DNA of 64,000 nt, from contig CBDCOW010000003.1 in the NCBI GenBank assembly GCA_965219875.1, positions 1,002,458 to 1,066,457 on the forward strand. Reading direction: 5' to 3'. The notes under the pieces were generated by a model. The model had not been told where the DNA came from, ran no database searches, and saw nothing but the letters and a program-made list of their open reading frames with translations. The DNA is from Dehalococcoidia bacterium. GTDB lineage: Bacteria; Chloroflexota; Dehalococcoidia; SHYB01. Made by a program: the position numbers and the translations under genes. Within the stretch, counting starts at the first letter, position 1. Every line of letters begins with the position of its first letter. Shown piece after piece: positions 3,333 through 56,082 of this stretch.

Positions 3333-4343
3333 CTAGTACAGGTGGCAGGCGACCCGGTGGCCCGGCGCGGCCTCTTTCATGATGGGCTCCACCTCGGCGC
3401 AGATATCCATCACGTGCGGGCACCGCGTGCGGAAACGGCACCCTGAAGGCGGGCTGATGGGCGAGGGGACCTCCCCTTGCAGCACGATCCGCTCCCGGGG
3501 GCGGGCCGGATTGGCGCTCAAGGTCGCAGAGAGCAAGGCCCGGCTGTAGGGGTGCAAGGGGTTGTTGAAGAACTCCTCGCTCGGCGCCAGCTCGGCGAAC
3601 TTCCCCAGGTACATGATGGCGACCGTATCGCCCATATACCGGACCATGGAGAGGTCGTGCGAAATGACGAAGAAGGTCAGCCCAAGTTGAGCTTGCAGAT
3701 CTTTGAGCAGGTTGACGATCTGCGCGCGAATGGAAACGTCGAGGGCCGAGACCGGTTCGTCGAGCACCAGCATCTTCGGCGCGAGGCCCAGCGCGCGGGC
3801 GATCGCGATCCGCTGGCGTTGGCCGCCGCTGAACTCGTGCGGATAGCGCTCGGCGTGGACTGGCGACAACGTCACCTGCTCGAGTAGCGACGCCACCTTG
3901 TCGTTGACTTCTTGTTTCGAGAGGCGCTCGTTGATCACCAGAGGTTCGGCGATGATGCTCCCGACACGCAGCTTGGAGTTGAGCGAGCTCCAGGGGTCTT
4001 GGAACACGGCCTGGACGTTGCCCCGGTAAGCCCGCGTCTCCTCTCGGGTCAAGCTGTCGATTTCGGCGCCTTGCCAGCGGAGCATCCCGCCGGTAGGCCG
4101 TTCGAGCTTGAGGAGCAGGTTCGCCAGCGTCGTCTTGCCACAGCCGGACTCGCCCGCCAAGCAAAAGGTCTCGCCCTCGGTAATCTCGAAGTCGACGCCG
4201 TCGACGGCCTTCACCGTCCGCTTGCCGTAGGCGAACACGCCCCGGCCCACGGCGAAATGCTTCTTCACCCCCAGGGCCTCAACAAGCGGGGGTGCGGTCT
4301 GGCTGGGCGCTGGGCCTACCGCCTCTTGGACCTGCTGGGTCAC
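3333..4343 (-). CDS. ABC transporter ATP-binding protein, DppF/OppF-like
   Basis: Walker A GESGCGKTT, signature FSGGQRQRIAIARAL, Walker B LVLDEPVSALD, H-loop ISHDL, plus the C-terminal oligopeptide-ABC extension with CRFRTRCPHV. Proposed GTG start at 4343..4341, overlapping the upstream TGA (GTGA). The longer track ORF runs into the upstream gene. Confidence 0.85.
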   Translation of the reverse strand: MTQQVQEAVGPAPSQTAPPLVEALGVKKHFAVGRGVFAYGKRTVKAVDGVDFEITEGETFCLAGESGCGKTTLANLLLKLERPTGGMLRWQGAEIDSLTREETRAYRGNVQAVFQDPWSSLNSKLRVGSIIAEPLVINERLSKQEVNDKVASLLEQVTLSPVHAERYPHEFSGGQRQRIAIARALGLAPKMLVLDEPVSALDVSIRAQIVNLLKDLQAQLGLTFFVISHDLSMVRYMGDTVAIMYLGKFAELAPSEEFFNNPLHPYSRALLSATLSANPARPRERIVLQGEVPSPISPPSGCRFRTRCPHVMDICAEVEPIMKEAAPGHRVACHLY

Positions 4344-5317
4344 GCGGCGTGCTCCTCGGCCCGCCAGCACTTCGCCGTGCGCTTCTCGCCAACAGCGAAC
4401 TCCGCGGGGAATTCCTTCTCGCAACGATCGAAGACGTAGGGGCACCGCGGCGCGAAGTGACAACCCGGCAGCAGCTCGAAGGGCGACGGCGGCTGCCCCT
4501 CGATGGAAGGAAGCCGGTCGGGTTTCTCCTCGATGCTGGTGACCGACTTCAGCAGTGCCTCGGAGTAGGGATGCGCGGGGCCGGCGAAGACCTCGGGGAC
4601 CGGCCCATATTCGACGATTCGGCCCGAGTACATCACGGCAACGGTGTCGCACACGTTCGCGACGACGCCGAAGTCGTGGGTGATGAACAGAATCGCCAGG
4701 TCGAACTCTTTCTGGAGGTCTTGCAGGAGGTCCAGATATTGCGCCTGGATCGTCGGGTCGAGGGCCGAGGTTGGCTCGTCGGCGATGAGAATCTCGGGCG
4801 TGGGGGCGATGCCGATAGCCCCGACGACCCGCTGCCGCATGCCGCCGCTCAACTGATGCGGAAAGTACCGCGACGCCGCCTCGGCGTCGGGGATGTGGAC
4901 CCGCCGCAGCAACTCCAGCACCCGCTCCTTGACATTAACGCCCTGGCGGTCGTGCAGCCGCACCGTTTCGCCGACTTGGTCGTCGACGCGGAACACCGGG
5001 TTCAGCGAGGTCAGCGGGTCCTGCAGGATCATCGCGATGCGCCCGCCCCTGACCTGCTGCATCTCCTTTTCGGTCTTGCCGACCAAATCGTCGCCGTGCA
5101 GCTCGACGCGGCCGCTGGTGATCCGGCCCAGCGGAGGGAGCAGGCGCATGATCGAAAGGGCGGTCATGCTCTTTCCCGAGCCGGACTCGCCCACGATGCC
5201 GAGGGTCTCGCCGCGGTGGAGGTCGAAGTCGACGCCATCGACCGCACGCACCACCCCGCGCTTGGTGTGCAACTCGGTCCGCAGGTCACGCACCGAGAGG
5301 ACTACGTCCTGTTCGAT
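4340..5317 (-). CDS. ABC transporter ATP-binding protein, DppD/OppD-like (start codon uncertain)
   Basis: Walker A GESGSGKSMT, signature LSGGMRQRV, Walker B LIADEPTSALD, H-loop ITHDF and CHFAPRCPYV C-terminus. The homologous N-terminus is LIEQDVVLSVRDL. A strong AAGGAGG lies at 5332..5338 just upstream, but the only in-frame upstream ATG is far away at 5488, so the start may be non-canonical near 5317. Confidence 0.8.
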   Translation of the reverse strand: MEQDVVLSVRDLRTELHTKRGVVRAVDGVDFDLHRGETLGIVGESGSGKSMTALSIMRLLPPLGRITSGRVELHGDDLVGKTEKEMQQVRGGRIAMILQDPLTSLNPVFRVDDQVGETVRLHDRQGVNVKERVLELLRRVHIPDAEAASRYFPHQLSGGMRQRVVGAIGIAPTPEILIADEPTSALDPTIQAQYLDLLQDLQKEFDLAILFITHDFGVVANVCDTVAVMYSGRIVEYGPVPEVFAGPAHPYSEALLKSVTSIEEKPDRLPSIEGQPPSPFELLPGCHFAPRCPYVFDRCEKEFPAEFAVGEKRTAKCWRAEEHAA

Positions 5318-50752: not shown

Positions 50753-52162
50753 CTATGAGGGAATCGCGACGACGTCGATTTCCAGTTGCAATTCTGGGTA
50801 GGGACCGATCTCGTCGGCCCCGATCACCGTCGTCGGCGGTATCTTGCCGTCGTAGATGACCCTAGCGACGCGCTCCAGGGCGGCGAGCTTCGATACGTCG
50901 ACCAGGTAGAGCACCTGATGCACCACCCTCGATATATCCGATCCCGCCTCTTTCAGCAGCCTCTGGTAGGTGCGGTAGATGTGCCATGCCTGGCACATCA
51001 TCGTTTCCGATTCAGGGTCGTCGTAGTGCGCCAGGCCCATGAGCTTGCCGTGGTCGCGCAGTTGGTCGAACGTCACGATGGGGAAGTTTGCCTGGTCGCG
51101 CCCCGAGTAGCCGGTGAGGAAGATGAGCGGCCCTGCCTGCTGCGTCATCGGGATCGGCCCGCTGACGATCTCGGGGTAGGTCTTGCCGACCTTCTCCCAC
51201 TCGCCGCCGGGGACGACGGCCACCGAGTCCATCACCCCCATCGCGTCGGGGTCGCCGCTCAGACGCCCCGCGCCCATGGTGAAGCCGGTGATCGTGGGCG
51301 CCGTTCCCGGGTCCGGGTTGTCGAACGCGTAGAGCGGTACGAAGACGCCGACGTCCACCATCCCCACGCTGGTGCAGAGGTTGTAGCGCAGCATGTCGGT
51401 CAACGACGCGCCCTGGCTCTCAAGCAGCCGCTTTGAGTTGGAGCGGACCAACGCCATCTGCGCCTTGAATGCTTCGAGCGACACGTCGATGTGGTAGCTG
51501 CCGCTCGTCAGGAACGCGGACCCTTCGTCGTTCACTTCGGCGAGCCGGGTGGGCACTCGGCCCGTCTCCGGGTCCACGCCGTAGAGCCCGGAGGTGAAGA
51601 GCAGGTCGCCGACGCGGACCCCCTGCGGGTACGGAGGGCAGACCTTTTCGAGTCCAGGCACGTGCACCGCGGTAGTGGTCAGGCCGCCTTCCTCCGGCAC
51701 GATCGCGACGACCTCGACGATGATGCGGTAGTCGTCGTGGTAGCCGTTGTCGGTCATGCGAGCGATGGTCGTCGCCGGCTTCTCGCCGGGGAAGAAGGAC
51801 TGCATCACCCGCTCGGCGTTGCGGATGTCGCGCCAGTCGGTGAGGTACAGCCGCTGCCGGACGACGTGTTCGAGCGACGAGCCCTGCGATTCCAGGATGT
51901 GCGACAGGTTCTGGTAGACCTGCCACGTCTGGGCGTTGATCGGGCCCTCGCGCCCGTCGCCGTGGACGCCCCACGACCGGAGCCCCTCGATCGCGTCCTC
52001 GGGGAGATCGGGGAGCTTCCGGATGACCTTGCCTGTCTCCGGGTTCCGGGGCGTCTGCCCCGAGAGAAAGAGAAACTGCCCGGCTCGGGTCCCGGTAGGG
52101 GCTGCGCCCAAACTCTCAAGCTCGGCGGGGAACCAGAAGTCTTGACGGTCCAAGATACGCAC
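50753..52162 (-). CDS. Triple tandem RidA/YjgF-domain fusion protein (single-chain pseudo-trimer)
   Basis: Three successive ~150-aa RidA-like modules: LFLSGQTP...LYLTDWRDI; LLFTSGLYGVDPETG...YNLCTSVGM; LIFLTGYSGRD...YLVDVSKLAA...TTVIGADEIGP. Confidence 0.7.
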   Translation of the reverse strand: MRILDRQDFWFPAELESLGAAPTGTRAGQFLFLSGQTPRNPETGKVIRKLPDLPEDAIEGLRSWGVHGDGREGPINAQTWQVYQNLSHILESQGSSLEHVVRQRLYLTDWRDIRNAERVMQSFFPGEKPATTIARMTDNGYHDDYRIIVEVVAIVPEEGGLTTTAVHVPGLEKVCPPYPQGVRVGDLLFTSGLYGVDPETGRVPTRLAEVNDEGSAFLTSGSYHIDVSLEAFKAQMALVRSNSKRLLESQGASLTDMLRYNLCTSVGMVDVGVFVPLYAFDNPDPGTAPTITGFTMGAGRLSGDPDAMGVMDSVAVVPGGEWEKVGKTYPEIVSGPIPMTQQAGPLIFLTGYSGRDQANFPIVTFDQLRDHGKLMGLAHYDDPESETMMCQAWHIYRTYQRLLKEAGSDISRVVHQVLYLVDVSKLAALERVARVIYDGKIPPTTVIGADEIGPYPELQLEIDVVAIPS

Positions 52163-52267: not shown

Positions 52268-53134
52268 CTAGCGAAGGAACGGCAGGATCACGTCCGCGAT
52301 GCGCCGGGGCTCGAACTCGATCACCTCGGCGCCGGTGTCCTCCAGCGTCGCCAGCGCGCCGTCGCCGAGCCGCTCCACGACCGCCGCGCCCTGCCTCCCC
52401 AGGTGCGCCTCGTCCGCCTTCGCCAGCTCGATCACCAGCGTCGGATTCGGAATGCGCCGCACCGCCTCGCCGAAGTCGAACGAGAAGTTGGCCTCGTAGA
52501 GCGGGCCCAGGCCGGCGCGGGCCTGGAGGAAGTCGATGGCGCGGGCTTCGAGCACCCCCAGCGTCTCGGCTGAAAGCCCCCGCGACGACATCGCGCGTTC
52601 GTGCCACCAGATGCCGGTCAGATTGGTGAAGCCCGCGGCCCAGTCGGCGAGCAGCCCCGCCGCCTCCGATTCGGCTTCCGCGGTGAAGTACCGGTCGACG
52701 ATGGCGTGGATGGCGGCGTCGCGGGCCTCTTTCGTCACGACGATGCTATGCGTCTCGCCGCACAAGACCAGCTTCGCGACGCGGTCGGGCCATCCCGCGG
52801 CGAGCGCGGCCCCGATCTTGTTTCCCGTATGCACCCCGAAGACGTGCGCCCGCTCGATCCCGACCACGTCGAGGAAGCCGGTAACGCTGCGCGCCAGATC
52901 GTGCATCGTCACCGCAGGCGGCAACGGATTGGAGCCGCCCGACCCCAGCGTGTCGAGCGCCAAGACCCGGCGCTCCTCGGCCAGCAGGGGCATGAGACCC
53001 GCGTAGACTCGCGACGACCGGGGGCTGGCGTGGAGCAGCACGAGCGGCGTGGTGTCCCCACCGCCTTCCTCGGCGTAGTGCATCTCTCCCATCGGTGTCG
53101 CCGCGTAGGCGTGCTTCAACGGCGTGCTCCTCAA
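52268..53134 (-). CDS. Alpha/beta-hydrolase fold protein (unusual H-T-G at the nucleophile-elbow position)
   Basis: LVLLHASPRSSRVY...VFGVHTGNKIG. Paralogue of 58057..58908. Confidence 0.75.
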   Translation of the reverse strand: MRSTPLKHAYAATPMGEMHYAEEGGGDTTPLVLLHASPRSSRVYAGLMPLLAEERRVLALDTLGSGGSNPLPPAVTMHDLARSVTGFLDVVGIERAHVFGVHTGNKIGAALAAGWPDRVAKLVLCGETHSIVVTKEARDAAIHAIVDRYFTAEAESEAAGLLADWAAGFTNLTGIWWHERAMSSRGLSAETLGVLEARAIDFLQARAGLGPLYEANFSFDFGEAVRRIPNPTLVIELAKADEAHLGRQGAAVVERLGDGALATLEDTGAEVIEFEPRRIADVILPFLR

Positions 53135-53181
53135 CCGGCCGCCTCAACTGCTTTGGCGGAATGTCCCGTGCCGCGACGATG

Positions 53182-53505
53182 CTACGAAGTTGGGATTAGG
53201 CTTCTGACGCGCTGTCCGCCGATAGCGACTACGCCCTCTGCGTTCAGGCCGCCGATCGCGACAACCCCGATCGCGTTGATTCCGCCAATCGCGACGACGC
53301 CCATCGCGTTGACCCCGCCGATCGCAACCAGTCCCATGGCATTCACGGGGGAGAACGTCACCAACCCCATCGCGTTGACCACGCTGAGCGCGACAAGACC
53401 GACCGCGTTGAAGGTACTCGCTGCCACGGCTCCGACCGCGTTGGTGCCCACCGCGACAATCCCAATCGCATTCTTGCCCCTGACGACTAAGTCCTGCGTT
53501 TGCAT
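53182..53505 (-). CDS. Small repeat protein: eight tandem 11-residue repeats x-N-A-x-G-x-V-A-I-G-G (33-nt DNA repeats)
   Basis: ATG 53505 preceded by GGAGGG 5 nt upstream. Protein KNAIGIVAVGT NAVGAVAAST FNAVGLVALSV VNAMGLVTFSP VNAMGLVAIGG VNAMGVVAIGG INAIGVVAIGG LNAEGVVAIGG. The opposite strand also translates repetitively (PPIATTPIAL...), so strand choice rests on the RBS and ATG. Confidence 0.45.
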   Translation of the reverse strand: MQTQDLVVRGKNAIGIVAVGTNAVGAVAASTFNAVGLVALSVVNAMGLVTFSPVNAMGLVAIGGVNAMGVVAIGGINAIGVVAIGGLNAEGVVAIGGQRVRSLIPTS

Positions 53506-53599
53506 GGTCCCTCCATGGCGCTAGCGGCCAATCTTATGCGAGGCCCGGCGACCCAGGCCGGGCGCAATGGTAGCACCTCGGGCCACGATCGAGCAGCTG

Positions 53600-54280
53600 C
53601 TATAGCCCCAAGATGCTCCGCACTTCGGTCACGCGGTCAATGACGTGGTCCGGGGGCCGCAGACCCGCCGGGTAATCCCGGCGCCGCCTGATCCAGGCGG
53701 CCTGCATGCCGAAGCGTTTGGCCCCGTCGACGTCGGCCGTTGGGTTGTCGCCAACAAACAGGGCTCGTTCCGGAGCCGTGAGTCCGGCCGCTCGGAGCGC
53801 ATCCCGGAATATCCTCTGGTCGGGTTTCTCATAGCCGGCCTCTTCGGAGACGATGATGAACGGCGCGAGCCGGTCGAGGCCCGCCCCCCTGCATTTGCCG
53901 CGCTGCCGACTCGTATCGCCATTCGTGACAATGCCCCAGGGCATCCCACGCTCGGTGAGTTCAGCGAGCATGGCGTTGACCTCCGCATCCGGCCTCGCGA
54001 GGTGGTCCATCGCCGAGCCGTACCACGCCGCCACCGATTCGTCATCCAAGCCGGTGTTGGGCCACTCGTTGAGCCATCGCCTGCGCGTCGCTTGGCGGGC
54101 TCCGTAGCCGTCCTCGTCCCAGAGGACCATCAACTCGACCGCCTCGTTCCGCGTCACGGAATGCCCGGCGGCGAGGTACTCGTCGTAGAAGGCCTCCGCC
54201 ACACTCTGGAACAAGGCCTCCCTATCGAGGAGGGTGTTGTCGAGGTCGAAGATCACGGCTTCGACCGGGGTCGCGTCCAA
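53600..54280 (-). CDS. HAD-superfamily hydrolase
   Basis: IFDLDNTLLD (motif I), VTNGD (II), K...GDNPTADVDGAKRFG (III/IV). Confidence 0.8.
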   Translation of the reverse strand: MDATPVEAVIFDLDNTLLDREALFQSVAEAFYDEYLAAGHSVTRNEAVELMVLWDEDGYGARQATRRRWLNEWPNTGLDDESVAAWYGSAMDHLARPDAEVNAMLAELTERGMPWGIVTNGDTSRQRGKCRGAGLDRLAPFIIVSEEAGYEKPDQRIFRDALRAAGLTAPERALFVGDNPTADVDGAKRFGMQAAWIRRRRDYPAGLRPPDHVIDRVTEVRSILGL

Positions 54281-54309: not shown

Positions 54310-56082
54310 TTACCGCGTCCCCGGTGGGGCGACGCTGACCGTGATGATTTCGGTCCCGTGGAACTGTTGGTGCCGCACCGACGAGGCGTAGCGCCGTAGC
54401 AGCCGGAGTGAGATTTCGTGCTCCATCGGTGTCTCTTCGTCGTGCTGCTGCAGCTGCCGGATCCGGTCTTCCAGGTTCCCCTCTTCGCTGTCTCCGCCGA
54501 TGAACTCCATCTCAGCCACCGGGCCCTCGCTCGCCGCCAGCACGATCAGCCGCCGTCCCCCCTCCTCGTCGGCCTCCTCTTCCTCCTCTGCATCGAGGTC
54601 GAGACTCAAGTCCAGCGGGGCTAGCGTCAAGAGCGTCTCTTCGGCGACCGCGCTCAGCCGGTCCTTCATCGCGGAGTCCCAGCCCCTGCTGAGGGCGAAC
54701 TCCTCGACGAAAGCGTTGAGGTCCGGCAAGACGCTGCTGTCCAGCCGCGACTCGAAACGCATGCGGCGGGGCTGGGAAAGCTCCAGGAAGAGAATCATCG
54801 CGATCACGGCGATTCCCCCAGTCGTGATGCCGCTCTGGAGCAGGCCCTGCCATACCGCACCGAGGCTTGGCAGAGTGAACAGTTTGAACTGGAACGCCGC
54901 GCCGATCCAGAAAGCGACGCCCGCGGCGACGACCTTCTGCTTGTTCTGCTCGGTGTTAACAACCGTCTGCATTCCTGCCACCATGAGCGTTCCCGTCACC
55001 AGGATCAGGTAGCCGGTCATGACCGGCCCCGGAATGGTGCTGAGCAGTCCCGACACCTTCGGCACAAACGCCAGCGCGATGAAGATCGTTCCGATAATGT
55101 AGCCGACCCGCCGGGAGGCGACCCCGGTGATTTGCGTGAACGAAACAATCCCCGGATTGATCGCGGTCGGGACCGCGCCCGCGACGCCGGCAAAGAGGTT
55201 GGCGGCGCCGGACCCCGAGATCGCGCCTTGCACCTCACGAAAGTCGACCGCCCGGTCCTCACGCCGCGCCACCCGCTGGAGCGCGATAGCCTCGCCGTTG
55301 GCCTGAATGGAGTTGATCACGCCGAGGAACAAGAAGGCGGGGAGCAGCGTCCAGAAAGCGGTGCTGAAGTCGAGGGCTAGCCCCGGCGATTCGTTGGGCA
55401 GGCCAATCCAGGGGGCGTCGATCACCCGCTGGGCGTCGTAGATGCCGAAGGCCGCCGCGACGCCACAGCCAGCGACGATGCCGATCACCGGCGCCCAGAG
55501 GCGCCACACCGGCGAGCCGCGAAGGGTGAGGGCGCCGACGATGACCAGCGTCGTCAGCGCGGTCAAGGGCGCCGCCGTCGGCTCCTCCAGCGACGCCTCG
55601 TCCAAGAGACCGAATACGACGGAGGCCAGGGTGATCGAGAGGATCATCATCACCGTTCCGCCGACAGTCGGGGTGACGATGCGCCGCAAGATGAACAGCC
55701 ACCGGGAAATGATGAGTTGGACGATTGCGGCGGCCAGGATCAGGGTGGTCAGCGTCGCCGGCCCTCCGTCCACCAGCGCCGTGATACAGAACGGGATGGA
55801 GAACGCGGCGGTGAAGAATGGGAGAACGGTGGCGGCCCCAATCGGTCCCAGCCGGCGGACCTGCACCAAGGTAGCCGCGCCGACGACGAGCAGCGAGGCG
55901 AAGACCATCCACACCAGGTAGGACTCGCCCCTCCCCGATGCGTTGGCGACGATCACGGGTGTGATCAGCAGGGTGGCGGAGGCGATGAGGCTGAACTGCA
56001 GGCCCAGCCCCAAGGAGAGGAGCCAAGGCGCGTTCTCGTTCGCCTCGTACCGGGGATTCTCAGAAGCCGGCGCAGCGGTCAC
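54310..56082 (-). CDS. NCS2-family nucleobase:cation symporter (xanthine/uracil permease-like) with ~170-aa acidic cytoplasmic C-terminal extension
   Basis: 12-14 TM profile with NCS2-like TM1 (GLQFSLIASATLLITPVI) and a GxxxQ-containing core. The C-terminal tail has a DLDAEEEEEADEEGG acidic run. GTG start. Confidence 0.7.
   Translation of the reverse strand: MTAAPASENPRYEANENAPWLLSLGLGLQFSLIASATLLITPVIVANASGRGESYLVWMVFASLLVVGAATLVQVRRLGPIGAATVLPFFTAAFSIPFCITALVDGGPATLTTLILAAAIVQLIISRWLFILRRIVTPTVGGTVMMILSITLASVVFGLLDEASLEEPTAAPLTALTTLVIVGALTLRGSPVWRLWAPVIGIVAGCGVAAAFGIYDAQRVIDAPWIGLPNESPGLALDFSTAFWTLLPAFLFLGVINSIQANGEAIALQRVARREDRAVDFREVQGAISGSGAANLFAGVAGAVPTAINPGIVSFTQITGVASRRVGYIIGTIFIALAFVPKVSGLLSTIPGPVMTGYLILVTGTLMVAGMQTVVNTEQNKQKVVAAGVAFWIGAAFQFKLFTLPSLGAVWQGLLQSGITTGGIAVIAMILFLELSQPRRMRFESRLDSSVLPDLNAFVEEFALSRGWDSAMKDRLSAVAEETLLTLAPLDLSLDLDAEEEEEADEEGGRRLIVLAASEGPVAEMEFIGGDSEEGNLEDRIRQLQQHDEETPMEHEISLRLLRRYASSVRHQQFHGTEIITVSVAPPGTR

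Follow-up and report, generated by a model that had tools for sequence, protein, structure and literature searches.

The 64,000-nucleotide stretch of contig CBDCOW010000003.1 analyzed here (hereafter the window; forward-strand positions 1,002,458 to 1,066,457 in assembly GCA_965219875.1, from a Dehalococcoidia bacterium of the Chloroflexota) has a GC content of 66 % and carries, at 53182..53505 on the minus strand, a gene for a protein of 107 residues with eight short repeat units. Both its open reading frame (ORF) call, which ends with the stop codon at 53182-53184, and its homologues identify it as a member of an unannotated family of repeat proteins. This family is new and has no described or modelled counterpart in family databases, and its repeats may form an unusually hydrophobic β-solenoid.

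From the N-terminus, the protein consists of a short, hydrophilic tail as read from the sequence (MQTQDLVVRGK, 53473..53505), a repeat core delimited by repeat detection and the unit profile (53212..53472; consensus N-[A/S]-h-G-h-V-[A/S/T]-h-[G/S/A]-G-h), and a basic C-terminal tail (RVRSLIPTS, 53185..53211) that follows the family motif [R/K]-S-x-[L/F]-P-x-x conserved in most orthologues. The successive units, all on the minus strand, are NAIGIVAVGT (u1, 53443-53472), NAVGAVAASTF (u2, 53410-53442), NAVGLVALSVV (u3, 53377-53409), NAMGLVTFSPV (u4, 53344-53376), NAMGLVAIGGV (u5, 53311-53343), NAMGVVAIGGI (u6, 53278-53310), NAIGVVAIGGL (u7, 53245-53277), and NAEGVVAIGGQ (u8, 53212-53244). An earlier note on this DNA had described eight perfectly phased 11-residue repeats. 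There are indeed eight in-phase units, and the protein identity at lag 11 reaches 0.52 as compared to 0.109 ± 0.03 in 20,000 shuffles (z = 13.5), but the first unit has only 10 residues, so that the core comprises 10 + 7 × 11 residues. At the DNA level, identity at lag 33 is 0.62 versus 0.28, and Tandem Repeats Finder reports a period of 33 with 5.9 copies and 70 % matches. The start-to-start spacing of the direct repeats is exactly 33 nt, save for 30 nt at the N-terminal unit that is one residue short; the units are diverged copies with 62-85 % DNA identity, and thus "perfectly phased" does not apply in the sense of perfect copies. Secondary autocorrelation peaks at lags 5 and 6 disclose a 5+6 substructure of two half-units, h-N-A-h-G and h-V-A-h-G-G. 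The description as GxxxG-rich had to be abandoned, since the 107-residue sequence contains no G-x-x-x-G and its glycines are spaced by 5, 6, and 11. A Shine-Dalgarno sequence (GGAGGG, 53509..53514, minus strand) is present as previously noted, although it is followed by ACC and then by the ATG at 53505, which leaves a spacer of 3 nt instead of 5. Most of the orthologue starts likewise show a match to GGAGG in at least four of five positions, which is not independent evidence because these starts were picked by their Shine-Dalgarno score. No relevant Rfam match, promoter, or terminator was found at the locus.

Pooling the seven full units and the pseudo-unit of the tail over 82 proteins, i. e., one for each of the 82 non-redundant species-level loci, yielded the following unit profile: N at position 1 (85 %), A/S at position 2 (91 %), I/M/V/T at position 3, G at position 4 (86 %, with S in 12 %), L/V/I at position 5, V/I/L at position 6, A/S/T at position 7 (98 %), I/V/L/A/F at position 8, G/S/A at position 9 (100 %), G at position 10 (59 %; in the window protein, the fourth unit specifically has Pro here), and V/L/I/W at position 11. 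The protein is almost free of charges. Residues 12-89 form an uninterrupted run of 78 uncharged residues, the median orthologue has 84 consecutive residues devoid of Asp, Glu, Lys, and Arg, and the repeat core is the sole uncharged run of at least 60 residues in any frame of the 64-kb window. The grand average of hydropathy is 1.11 for the whole protein and 1.43 for the core, and 19-residue Kyte-Doolittle windows reach 1.6-2.0 at the highest. The flanks are charged asymmetrically: the N-terminal tails of the orthologues (5-25 residues, often ending in W-x-T-x-D or G-W-A-D) carry a mean net charge of -0.29 and the C-terminal tails one of +1.05. No Lys or Arg occurs among the 87 residues that separate K11 from R99, and the window protein would thus almost certainly escape detection by tryptic proteomics.

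That the minus-strand ORF represents a real protein-coding gene is hardly in doubt. The earlier note had favored this strand while cautioning that the other one also translates as a repeat, which is correct: an ORF of 307 codons' worth of residues at 52601..53524 on the plus strand reads PPIATTPIAL... and traverses both the α/β-hydrolase gene and the repeat gene antisense. Together with the fact that GC-rich DNA commonly holds several frames open, this could suggest a non-coding tandem DNA repeat or an opposite-strand gene, with the minus-strand ORF being accidental. The comparative evidence leaves next to no room for this explanation. GC contents at codon positions 1/2/3 are 0.64/0.46/0.77 in the minus-strand frame, the same pattern as in five neighboring genes, whereas the antisense ORF shares the wobble position with the minus frame and shows inverted values at positions 1 and 2 (0.47/0.64). 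The sense frame is open in 82/82 loci (median product of 106 residues, 7-9 units, tail as above), and frame, length, and amino-acid sequence are kept across the 82 species, as compared to antisense frames that are open in just 44 and 54 of the 82 orthologous regions, that is, broken in 28-38 of them. On the codon alignment, the proportion of nonsynonymous differences (pN) in the sense frame is 0.26 versus 0.65 for synonymous ones (pS), with a median ratio of the corresponding rates (dN/dS) of 0.21; pN/pS is worse in every antisense frame, pN lies well under pS in the minus frame only, and column entropies of 0.82/0.45/1.54 place the variability at codon position 3. The minus-strand frame is therefore under purifying selection, the accidental and antisense-gene readings are refuted by frame conservation, interrupted antisense frames, and pN versus pS, and the 307-residue plus-strand ORF is a typical GC-rich shadow ORF, not conserved as open and not a gene.

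The same data indicate how the repeat is maintained. Third-position (synonymous) identity between units amounts to 0.49-0.52 within one gene and to 0.41-0.46 between different genes or genomes. Since synonymous sites are hardly more alike within a gene than between genes, the repeats appear to be ancient and not to be undergoing homogenization, and gene conversion or recent DNA duplication was accordingly rejected as the source of the 33-nt repeat. With synonymous sites between units nearly randomized, this DNA repeat is rather a by-product of selection at the protein level. Individual units moreover carry their own conserved peculiarities across the 82 orthologues, for example, a T-F-[S/G]-P unit in the middle of the array, which implies that the array behaves as a fixed domain and not as an expandable repeat. 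Changes in unit number, for which the earlier note had considered out-of-frame variation as a sign of a non-coding repeat, are always in frame: nine units are found in the 121-residue orthologue of locus L050 and seven in L065, and the products of L065 and L072 have 95 and 99 residues, respectively. Such in-frame differences by whole units show that, stable as the array is on the whole, a single unit is now and then gained or lost.

Homologous ORFs, whose absence elsewhere the earlier note would have counted against the gene, do exist, although the family is rare. A homology search retrieved 58 homologous proteins with E-values down to 1e-25, and screening each GTDB species by one genome with a trimmed core alignment revealed 168 relatives, 80 loci of which were retrieved; three ENA contigs have a call for exactly the same protein. 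An exhaustive search with a hidden Markov model among 1.84 billion cluster representatives yielded only 169 clusters at E <= 1e-3, and a few of the weakest are clearly compositional matches to eukaryotic low-complexity proteins. All source names for the homologues read "hypothetical protein", and, consistent with the earlier statement that the family was not recognized, Pfam, NCBIfam, PHROGs, and PADLOC gave no match for the window protein (Pfam to E <= 1) or for relatives of three architectures. A profile search of PDB chain sequences returned spurious matches to the hydrogenase small subunit and NDUEG3 only (best E ~0.2), no tblastn match to the gene was obtained in plasmid and phage collections, and a literature search with motif strings such as VAIGGVN and AIGGVNA found no papers. 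The genomes with the gene are almost all metagenome-assembled genomes (MAGs) of Dehalococcoidia, along with some Acidimicrobiales (class Acidimicrobiia), and named relatives include Candidatus Poriferisodalis, Candidatus Aldehydirespirator, and Candidatus Poribacteria, so that the family is present in three phyla (Chloroflexota, Actinomycetota, and Poribacteria). Poriferisodalaceae and Aldehydirespiratoraceae contain sponge-symbiotic lineages (PMC11706023), and the sponge species investigated in PMC8163846 are consistent with MAG names like RHO1_bin and IRC4_bin. The family thus seems to be associated with sponges, judging from source and MAG names and from lineages rather than from sample metadata. 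With its approximately 170 sequence clusters in three phyla and many source names pointing to sponge microbiomes, it could enter Pfam and serve as a marker.

Two further architectures, neither of which matches a Pfam family, combine the repeat block with transmembrane (TM) helices. In the one termed A4 (P0096, P0097, P0115, P0122, and 22 others), the repeats lead into a TM helix and an Arg-rich segment, behind which come a domain of some 100 residues with a conserved G-Y-R and a C-terminal TM helix. In the other (P0028, P0058, P0061, P0068, P0083, and P0086), a TM helix precedes the repeats, and these are followed by a basic tail conserved as Y-x-[FL]-S-P-x-R-Q-D-x-x-A-V-x-F-F-T-R-W-x-P-x-L-K; a basic N-terminal tail stands before the TM helix (e. 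g., in P0028 and P0061). Six metagenome-derived sequences (P0002, P0003, P0008, P0019, P0026, and P0032) switch inside the repeat to an Arg/Cys-rich sequence that corresponds to another reading frame of the repeat, and are probably assembly frameshifts or pseudogenes. The copies in species-representative genomes are all intact except for that of L002, which has a C-terminal extension.

The beta-solenoid proposed in the earlier note was assessed with AlphaFold2. With an alignment of 59 sequences, the pLDDT (predicted score in the local distance difference test) was 89.4 (91-96 over residues 11-90) and the predicted template modelling score 0.74. According to DSSP, the model is all-β, with an unbroken strand over residues 7-41 and then nine strand and two non-strand residues per 11-residue unit; strands continuing through the turns would imply in-register parallel stacking and thus a solenoid instead of a hairpin meander, as deduced from the DSSP string. 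A single-sequence control gave similar β structure with a pLDDT of 66 (31-59 for the other four models). The rise from 66 to 89 suggests that the alignment adds real signal, even though a prior for repeats is nonetheless visible. Corrected mutual information provides weak but independent support: it shows a bump at separations of 10-11, background levels from 12 on, and no bump at 22 or 33, with the strongest covarying pairs occupying the same unit position in adjacent units. Given that gene conversion is not detectable, covariation at this distance favors direct stacking of adjacent units. Foldseek searches against PDB and BFVD returned no match at E <= 0.001, the best-ranked non-significant PDB matches being β-helices such as GlmU, LpxD, γ-carbonic anhydrase, and the budworm antifreeze protein (1m8n). 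Based on the model, a β-solenoid fold appears probable, and the protein would best be described as belonging to the structural class of β-solenoid repeat proteins, in which its 11-residue (5+6) unit and nearly charge-free sequence would be unprecedented. The earlier suggestion is hence strengthened by an all-β prediction and by covariation, yet unproven in view of the known over-prediction of solenoids by AlphaFold2 (PMC11795689).

Such a fold could conceivably work as follows. The two pseudo-pentapeptide halves of each unit would make up a rung or part of it, and the units would stack as rungs of a narrow parallel β-solenoid with 11 or 22 residues per coil. A ladder would be formed by Asn at position 1, with Gly (positions 4 and 10) at the corners and with the interior packed by the residues of positions 2, 7, and 9, which are strictly small. 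Positions 3, 5/6, 8, and 11 would then give rise to ladders of Val, Ile, Leu, and Met and hence to an exposed apolar surface that could not be in contact with water, so that the rod would not be a soluble monomer but would be buried in the cytoplasmic membrane or in homo-oligomers or fibers. In the membrane case, the asymmetry of charges would place the N-terminal tail outside and the basic C-terminal tail inside. A membrane location is favored by this asymmetry and by Trp and Asp at the N-side boundary as well as by the distant relatives in which the repeat block is fused to ordinary TM helices and basic or Arg-rich segments; applying the positive-inside rule to both TM-fused architectures, by our own charge counting, suggests that the block crosses the membrane an odd number of times. 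Taken together, we slightly favor a hydrophobic β-solenoid structural protein that is either membrane-embedded or self-associating. In its most specific form, eight rungs would build a rod of approximately 38 Å (8 × 4.8 Å) that crosses the cytoplasmic membrane as an all-L β-helix, a proposal to which we give little credence at present. If true, gramicidin or polytheonamide would have a counterpart encoded by a gene, the architecture would be novel among membrane proteins, and such rods might come together as pores or as arrays that stiffen the membrane in bacteria including sponge symbionts; should the protein prove to be membrane-spanning β structure in a bacterium without an outer membrane, it would constitute a new kind of membrane protein.

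Several points weigh against a hydrophobic solenoid. To our knowledge, a membrane-embedded all-L β-solenoid is without precedent, and the geometry of the model has none among the 50 listed PDB matches, whose query-normalized TM-scores do not exceed 0.34. The covariation rests on an effective number of sequences of about 38, the topology argument on our own charge counts and not on predictor output, and the gene context lends no functional support (see below). Furthermore, the single-sequence run already leans to β, and AlphaFold2 has been shown to return confident yet spurious solenoids for 41 % of sequences made up of random perfect repeats (PMC11795689). In any case, with its 11-residue (5+6) unit, its charge-free core, and no structural neighbor, the protein offers a good test case for whether very narrow apolar β-solenoids exist and whether confident AlphaFold2 solenoids of repeats can be trusted.

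The same composition, rich in Gly, Ala, Val, and Ile, could alternatively belong to a small polytopic α-helical membrane protein with three or four thin, packed TM helices and hydrogen bonding between them via Asn. The solenoid would then be an artefact of the bias of AlphaFold2 for repeats (PMC11795689). The long charge-free stretch, the basic C-terminal tail, and the aromatic and acidic residues at the N-side boundary would all fit a helical protein, as would the Kyte-Doolittle values and the relatives that join the block to ordinary TM helices and Arg-rich cytoplasmic segments. Similar compositions, for example, the C-terminus of APP/A-beta, are helical in membranes. On the Hessa scale, however, no 19-residue window is favorable for insertion (all > +2.4 kcal/mol), and these sums, in spite of Kyte-Doolittle windows of up to 2.0, render a helical bundle possible but not favored. 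A sequence with Asn at every 11th position and with 17 Gly among 87 residues is ill-suited to helix formation, polar loops as well as GxxxG or heptad patterns are missing, and the autocorrelation peaks at 5, 6, and 11 and not at 3-4 or 7. Covariation at separations of 10-11 and the gain in pLDDT upon adding the alignment likewise speak against helices. We therefore regard a helical protein as rather unlikely, though as the most serious competitor; were it merely that, the gene would be an ordinary hypothetical one.

If the solenoid is real, it might also act outside the membrane, namely as an exported or self-assembling fiber on or in the cell, akin to curli, YadA heads, or bactofilins and perhaps serving attachment within the sponge matrix; solenoid units joined end to end or side by side would give amyloid-like or adhesin-like filaments. 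Stacking would be favored by the Asn ladder, by Gly at the corners, and by an apolar surface, the composition is strongly prone to β-aggregation, and the distribution over three phyla with several source names indicating sponge microbiomes would be compatible with such a role. This seems improbable, though, given that reading of the sequences disclosed no recognizable signal peptide and that most orthologues have Asp or Glu in their first hydrophobic stretch, that no secretion or assembly genes recur nearby, that the caps conserved at both termini resemble stops to further stacking, and that the matches to PDB sequences and the listed fold matches include no CsgA, YadA, or bactofilin. Even less can be said for a precursor of a ribosomally synthesized and post-translationally modified peptide of the proteusin/polytheonamide type, in which epimerized, alternating D/L residues would form the membrane-spanning β-helix. 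The Gly/Val/Ala/Ile/Asn composition and the sponge-symbiont origin do recall polytheonamides, and nitrile-hydratase α/β genes immediately precede the gene in six loci (five species). These, however, encode enzyme subunits of full length and are restricted to a single clade, NCBIfam and Pfam detect neither an NHLP nor any other leader ahead of the core, where the N-terminal tail offers just 5-25 residues, and radical-SAM or other modification enzymes are missing among the recurrent neighbors of 78 loci (not all singletons were scanned). As length and unit-specific features are also conserved as in a folded protein, such a precursor is very improbable.

The window protein resembles several known systems in single features and fails the defining tests of each. 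Pentapeptide repeats (Rfr fold, PF00805; A-[D/N]-L-x-x) are known parallel β-helices, as the window protein is predicted to be, and share the half-unit rhythm visible in the lag-5/6 peaks, Asn at i-1, and Gly closing the turn. They differ in their uniform period of 5 as opposed to 11 (5+6), in central residues that are Leu/Phe and not A/S (91 %) and A/S/T (98 %) as at positions 2 and 7, and in outward positions that are polar instead of hydrophobic; PF00805 gave no Pfam match at E <= 1, and the 50 PDB matches listed by Foldseek, all non-significant, include no pentapeptide-repeat structure. YadA-like heads (Hep_Hag) of trimeric autotransporter adhesins, which are left-handed parallel β-rolls, have (N)S-V-A-I-G motifs, a very narrow roll with an Ala/Ser/Gly interior, and apolar faces for self-association, features reminiscent of the window protein and its predicted fold. 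Their period is 14 (7+7), though, and they form part of large secreted proteins that possess a signal peptide and a C-terminal membrane anchor, whereas the window protein has 107 residues without further domains and matches Hep_Hag/YadA_head neither in Pfam nor, apart from the spurious matches, among PDB chains at E <= 10. In coil size, insect antifreeze β-helices come closest if one 11-residue unit equals one coil (12 residues per coil in the antifreeze protein of Tenebrio molitor; also that of spruce budworm), but these are Cys/Thr-rich, soluble, and secreted, with a disulfide-braced core, as compared to a protein with no Cys, sparse Thr without a ladder, and a predicted apolar surface.

Asn ladders, Gly turns, and a possible 22-residue strand-arc-strand coil of two units also recall curli CsgA and functional amyloid. 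CsgA, however, is equipped with a Sec signal, polar surfaces, and a dedicated set of csg assembly genes, and nothing of the kind was seen for the window family: there is no curlin-repeat Pfam match, the hydrophilic N-terminal tails are short, and assembly genes do not recur in the vicinity. With polytheonamides and other proteusins, the family has in common the richness in Gly, Val, Ala, Ile, and Asn, a sponge-microbiome background, and the notion that a β-helix might span the membrane. Their cores of 48-49 residues are cut from precursors with an NHLP leader and modified by clustered enzymes, in contrast to a conserved product of about 105 residues without a leader (NHLP/Nif11-type) or a cluster. 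RTX β-rolls (HemolysinCabind, GGxGxDxUx) gave no Pfam match, and the period is 11 instead of that of a nonapeptide, with GG-x being followed by Asn in 85 % and by Asp in about 1 % of cases. Bactofilin (DUF583, PF04519) was absent both from the Pfam results and from the PDB matches listed by Foldseek, and a TM-score of 0.16 (E 0.84) was reached by a "polymer-forming cytoskeletal protein" of a phage. Glycine zippers, finally, are at variance with the missing G-x-x-x-G, and no Gly-zipper Pfam family was matched.

In the window, the gene stands between two co-oriented hydrolase genes, as the earlier note had observed, namely those of an HAD hydrolase (53600-54280) and an α/β hydrolase (52268-53134), both on the minus strand. 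The complete order (permease, HAD, repeat gene, α/β hydrolase, RidA, M24 peptidase) is a synteny shared with the Dehalococcoidia loci L007, L008, and L054 and common only to the closest relatives, and for this reason was dismissed as a functional clue. Overall, the gene occurs in at least 10 distinct synteny types with no partner common across the groups, and is thus functionally autonomous as far as the context can tell. The commonest other arrangement has CoaX-CoaBC upstream (15-17 loci) and a luciferase-like oxidoreductase and an ABC-2 transporter downstream. Across the 78 loci, recurrent neighbors comprise ABC_tran, Bac_luciferase, DFP/Flavoprotein (CoaBC), Pan_kinase, ABC2, GMC, and SDR. 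ABC ATPases are found within 4.5 kb in 25 loci, which we attribute to chance since these loci are spread over unrelated synteny groups and such genes are among the commonest.

The nitrile-hydratase-like set lies directly upstream of the repeat gene in one Dehalococcoidia clade, for example, at 3297-4940 in L001 and 3493-4750 in L002 (also in L049, L053, and L063). It comprises three genes, with the β subunit split into genes for its N- and C-terminal halves and followed by an α subunit of 212 residues, a layout that recalls thiocyanate hydrolase, and is preceded by genes for S-adenosylmethionine synthetase (MetK) and adenosylhomocysteinase (AHCY). Because it is confined to six loci, this context was likewise discarded as a functional clue.

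Some neighbors in the window are peculiar in their own right. At 50753-52162 (minus strand), a protein of 469 residues contains four matched stretches of the RidA/L-PSP endoribonuclease domain (PF01042), an unusual tandem form of a domain that is normally single in proteins of about 125 residues. The xanthine/uracil-family permease at 54310-56082 (minus strand) has 590 residues, but its Pfam match ends at residue 395; the C-terminal part of about 190 residues has no domain match and contains an acidic run (DLDAEEEEEADEEGG). The upstream HAD hydrolase varies in length, with 226 residues in the window and in L005 (4233-4913) and 264 residues in L003 and L004 (both 4225-5019), where the call overlaps the start of the repeat gene by 19 nt. 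In these strain-level contigs, which carry the identical repeat protein, the HAD hydrolase is 86-95 % identical to the window copy as compared to 94-99 % for neighboring genes, suggesting that its 3' end is variable or frameshifted.

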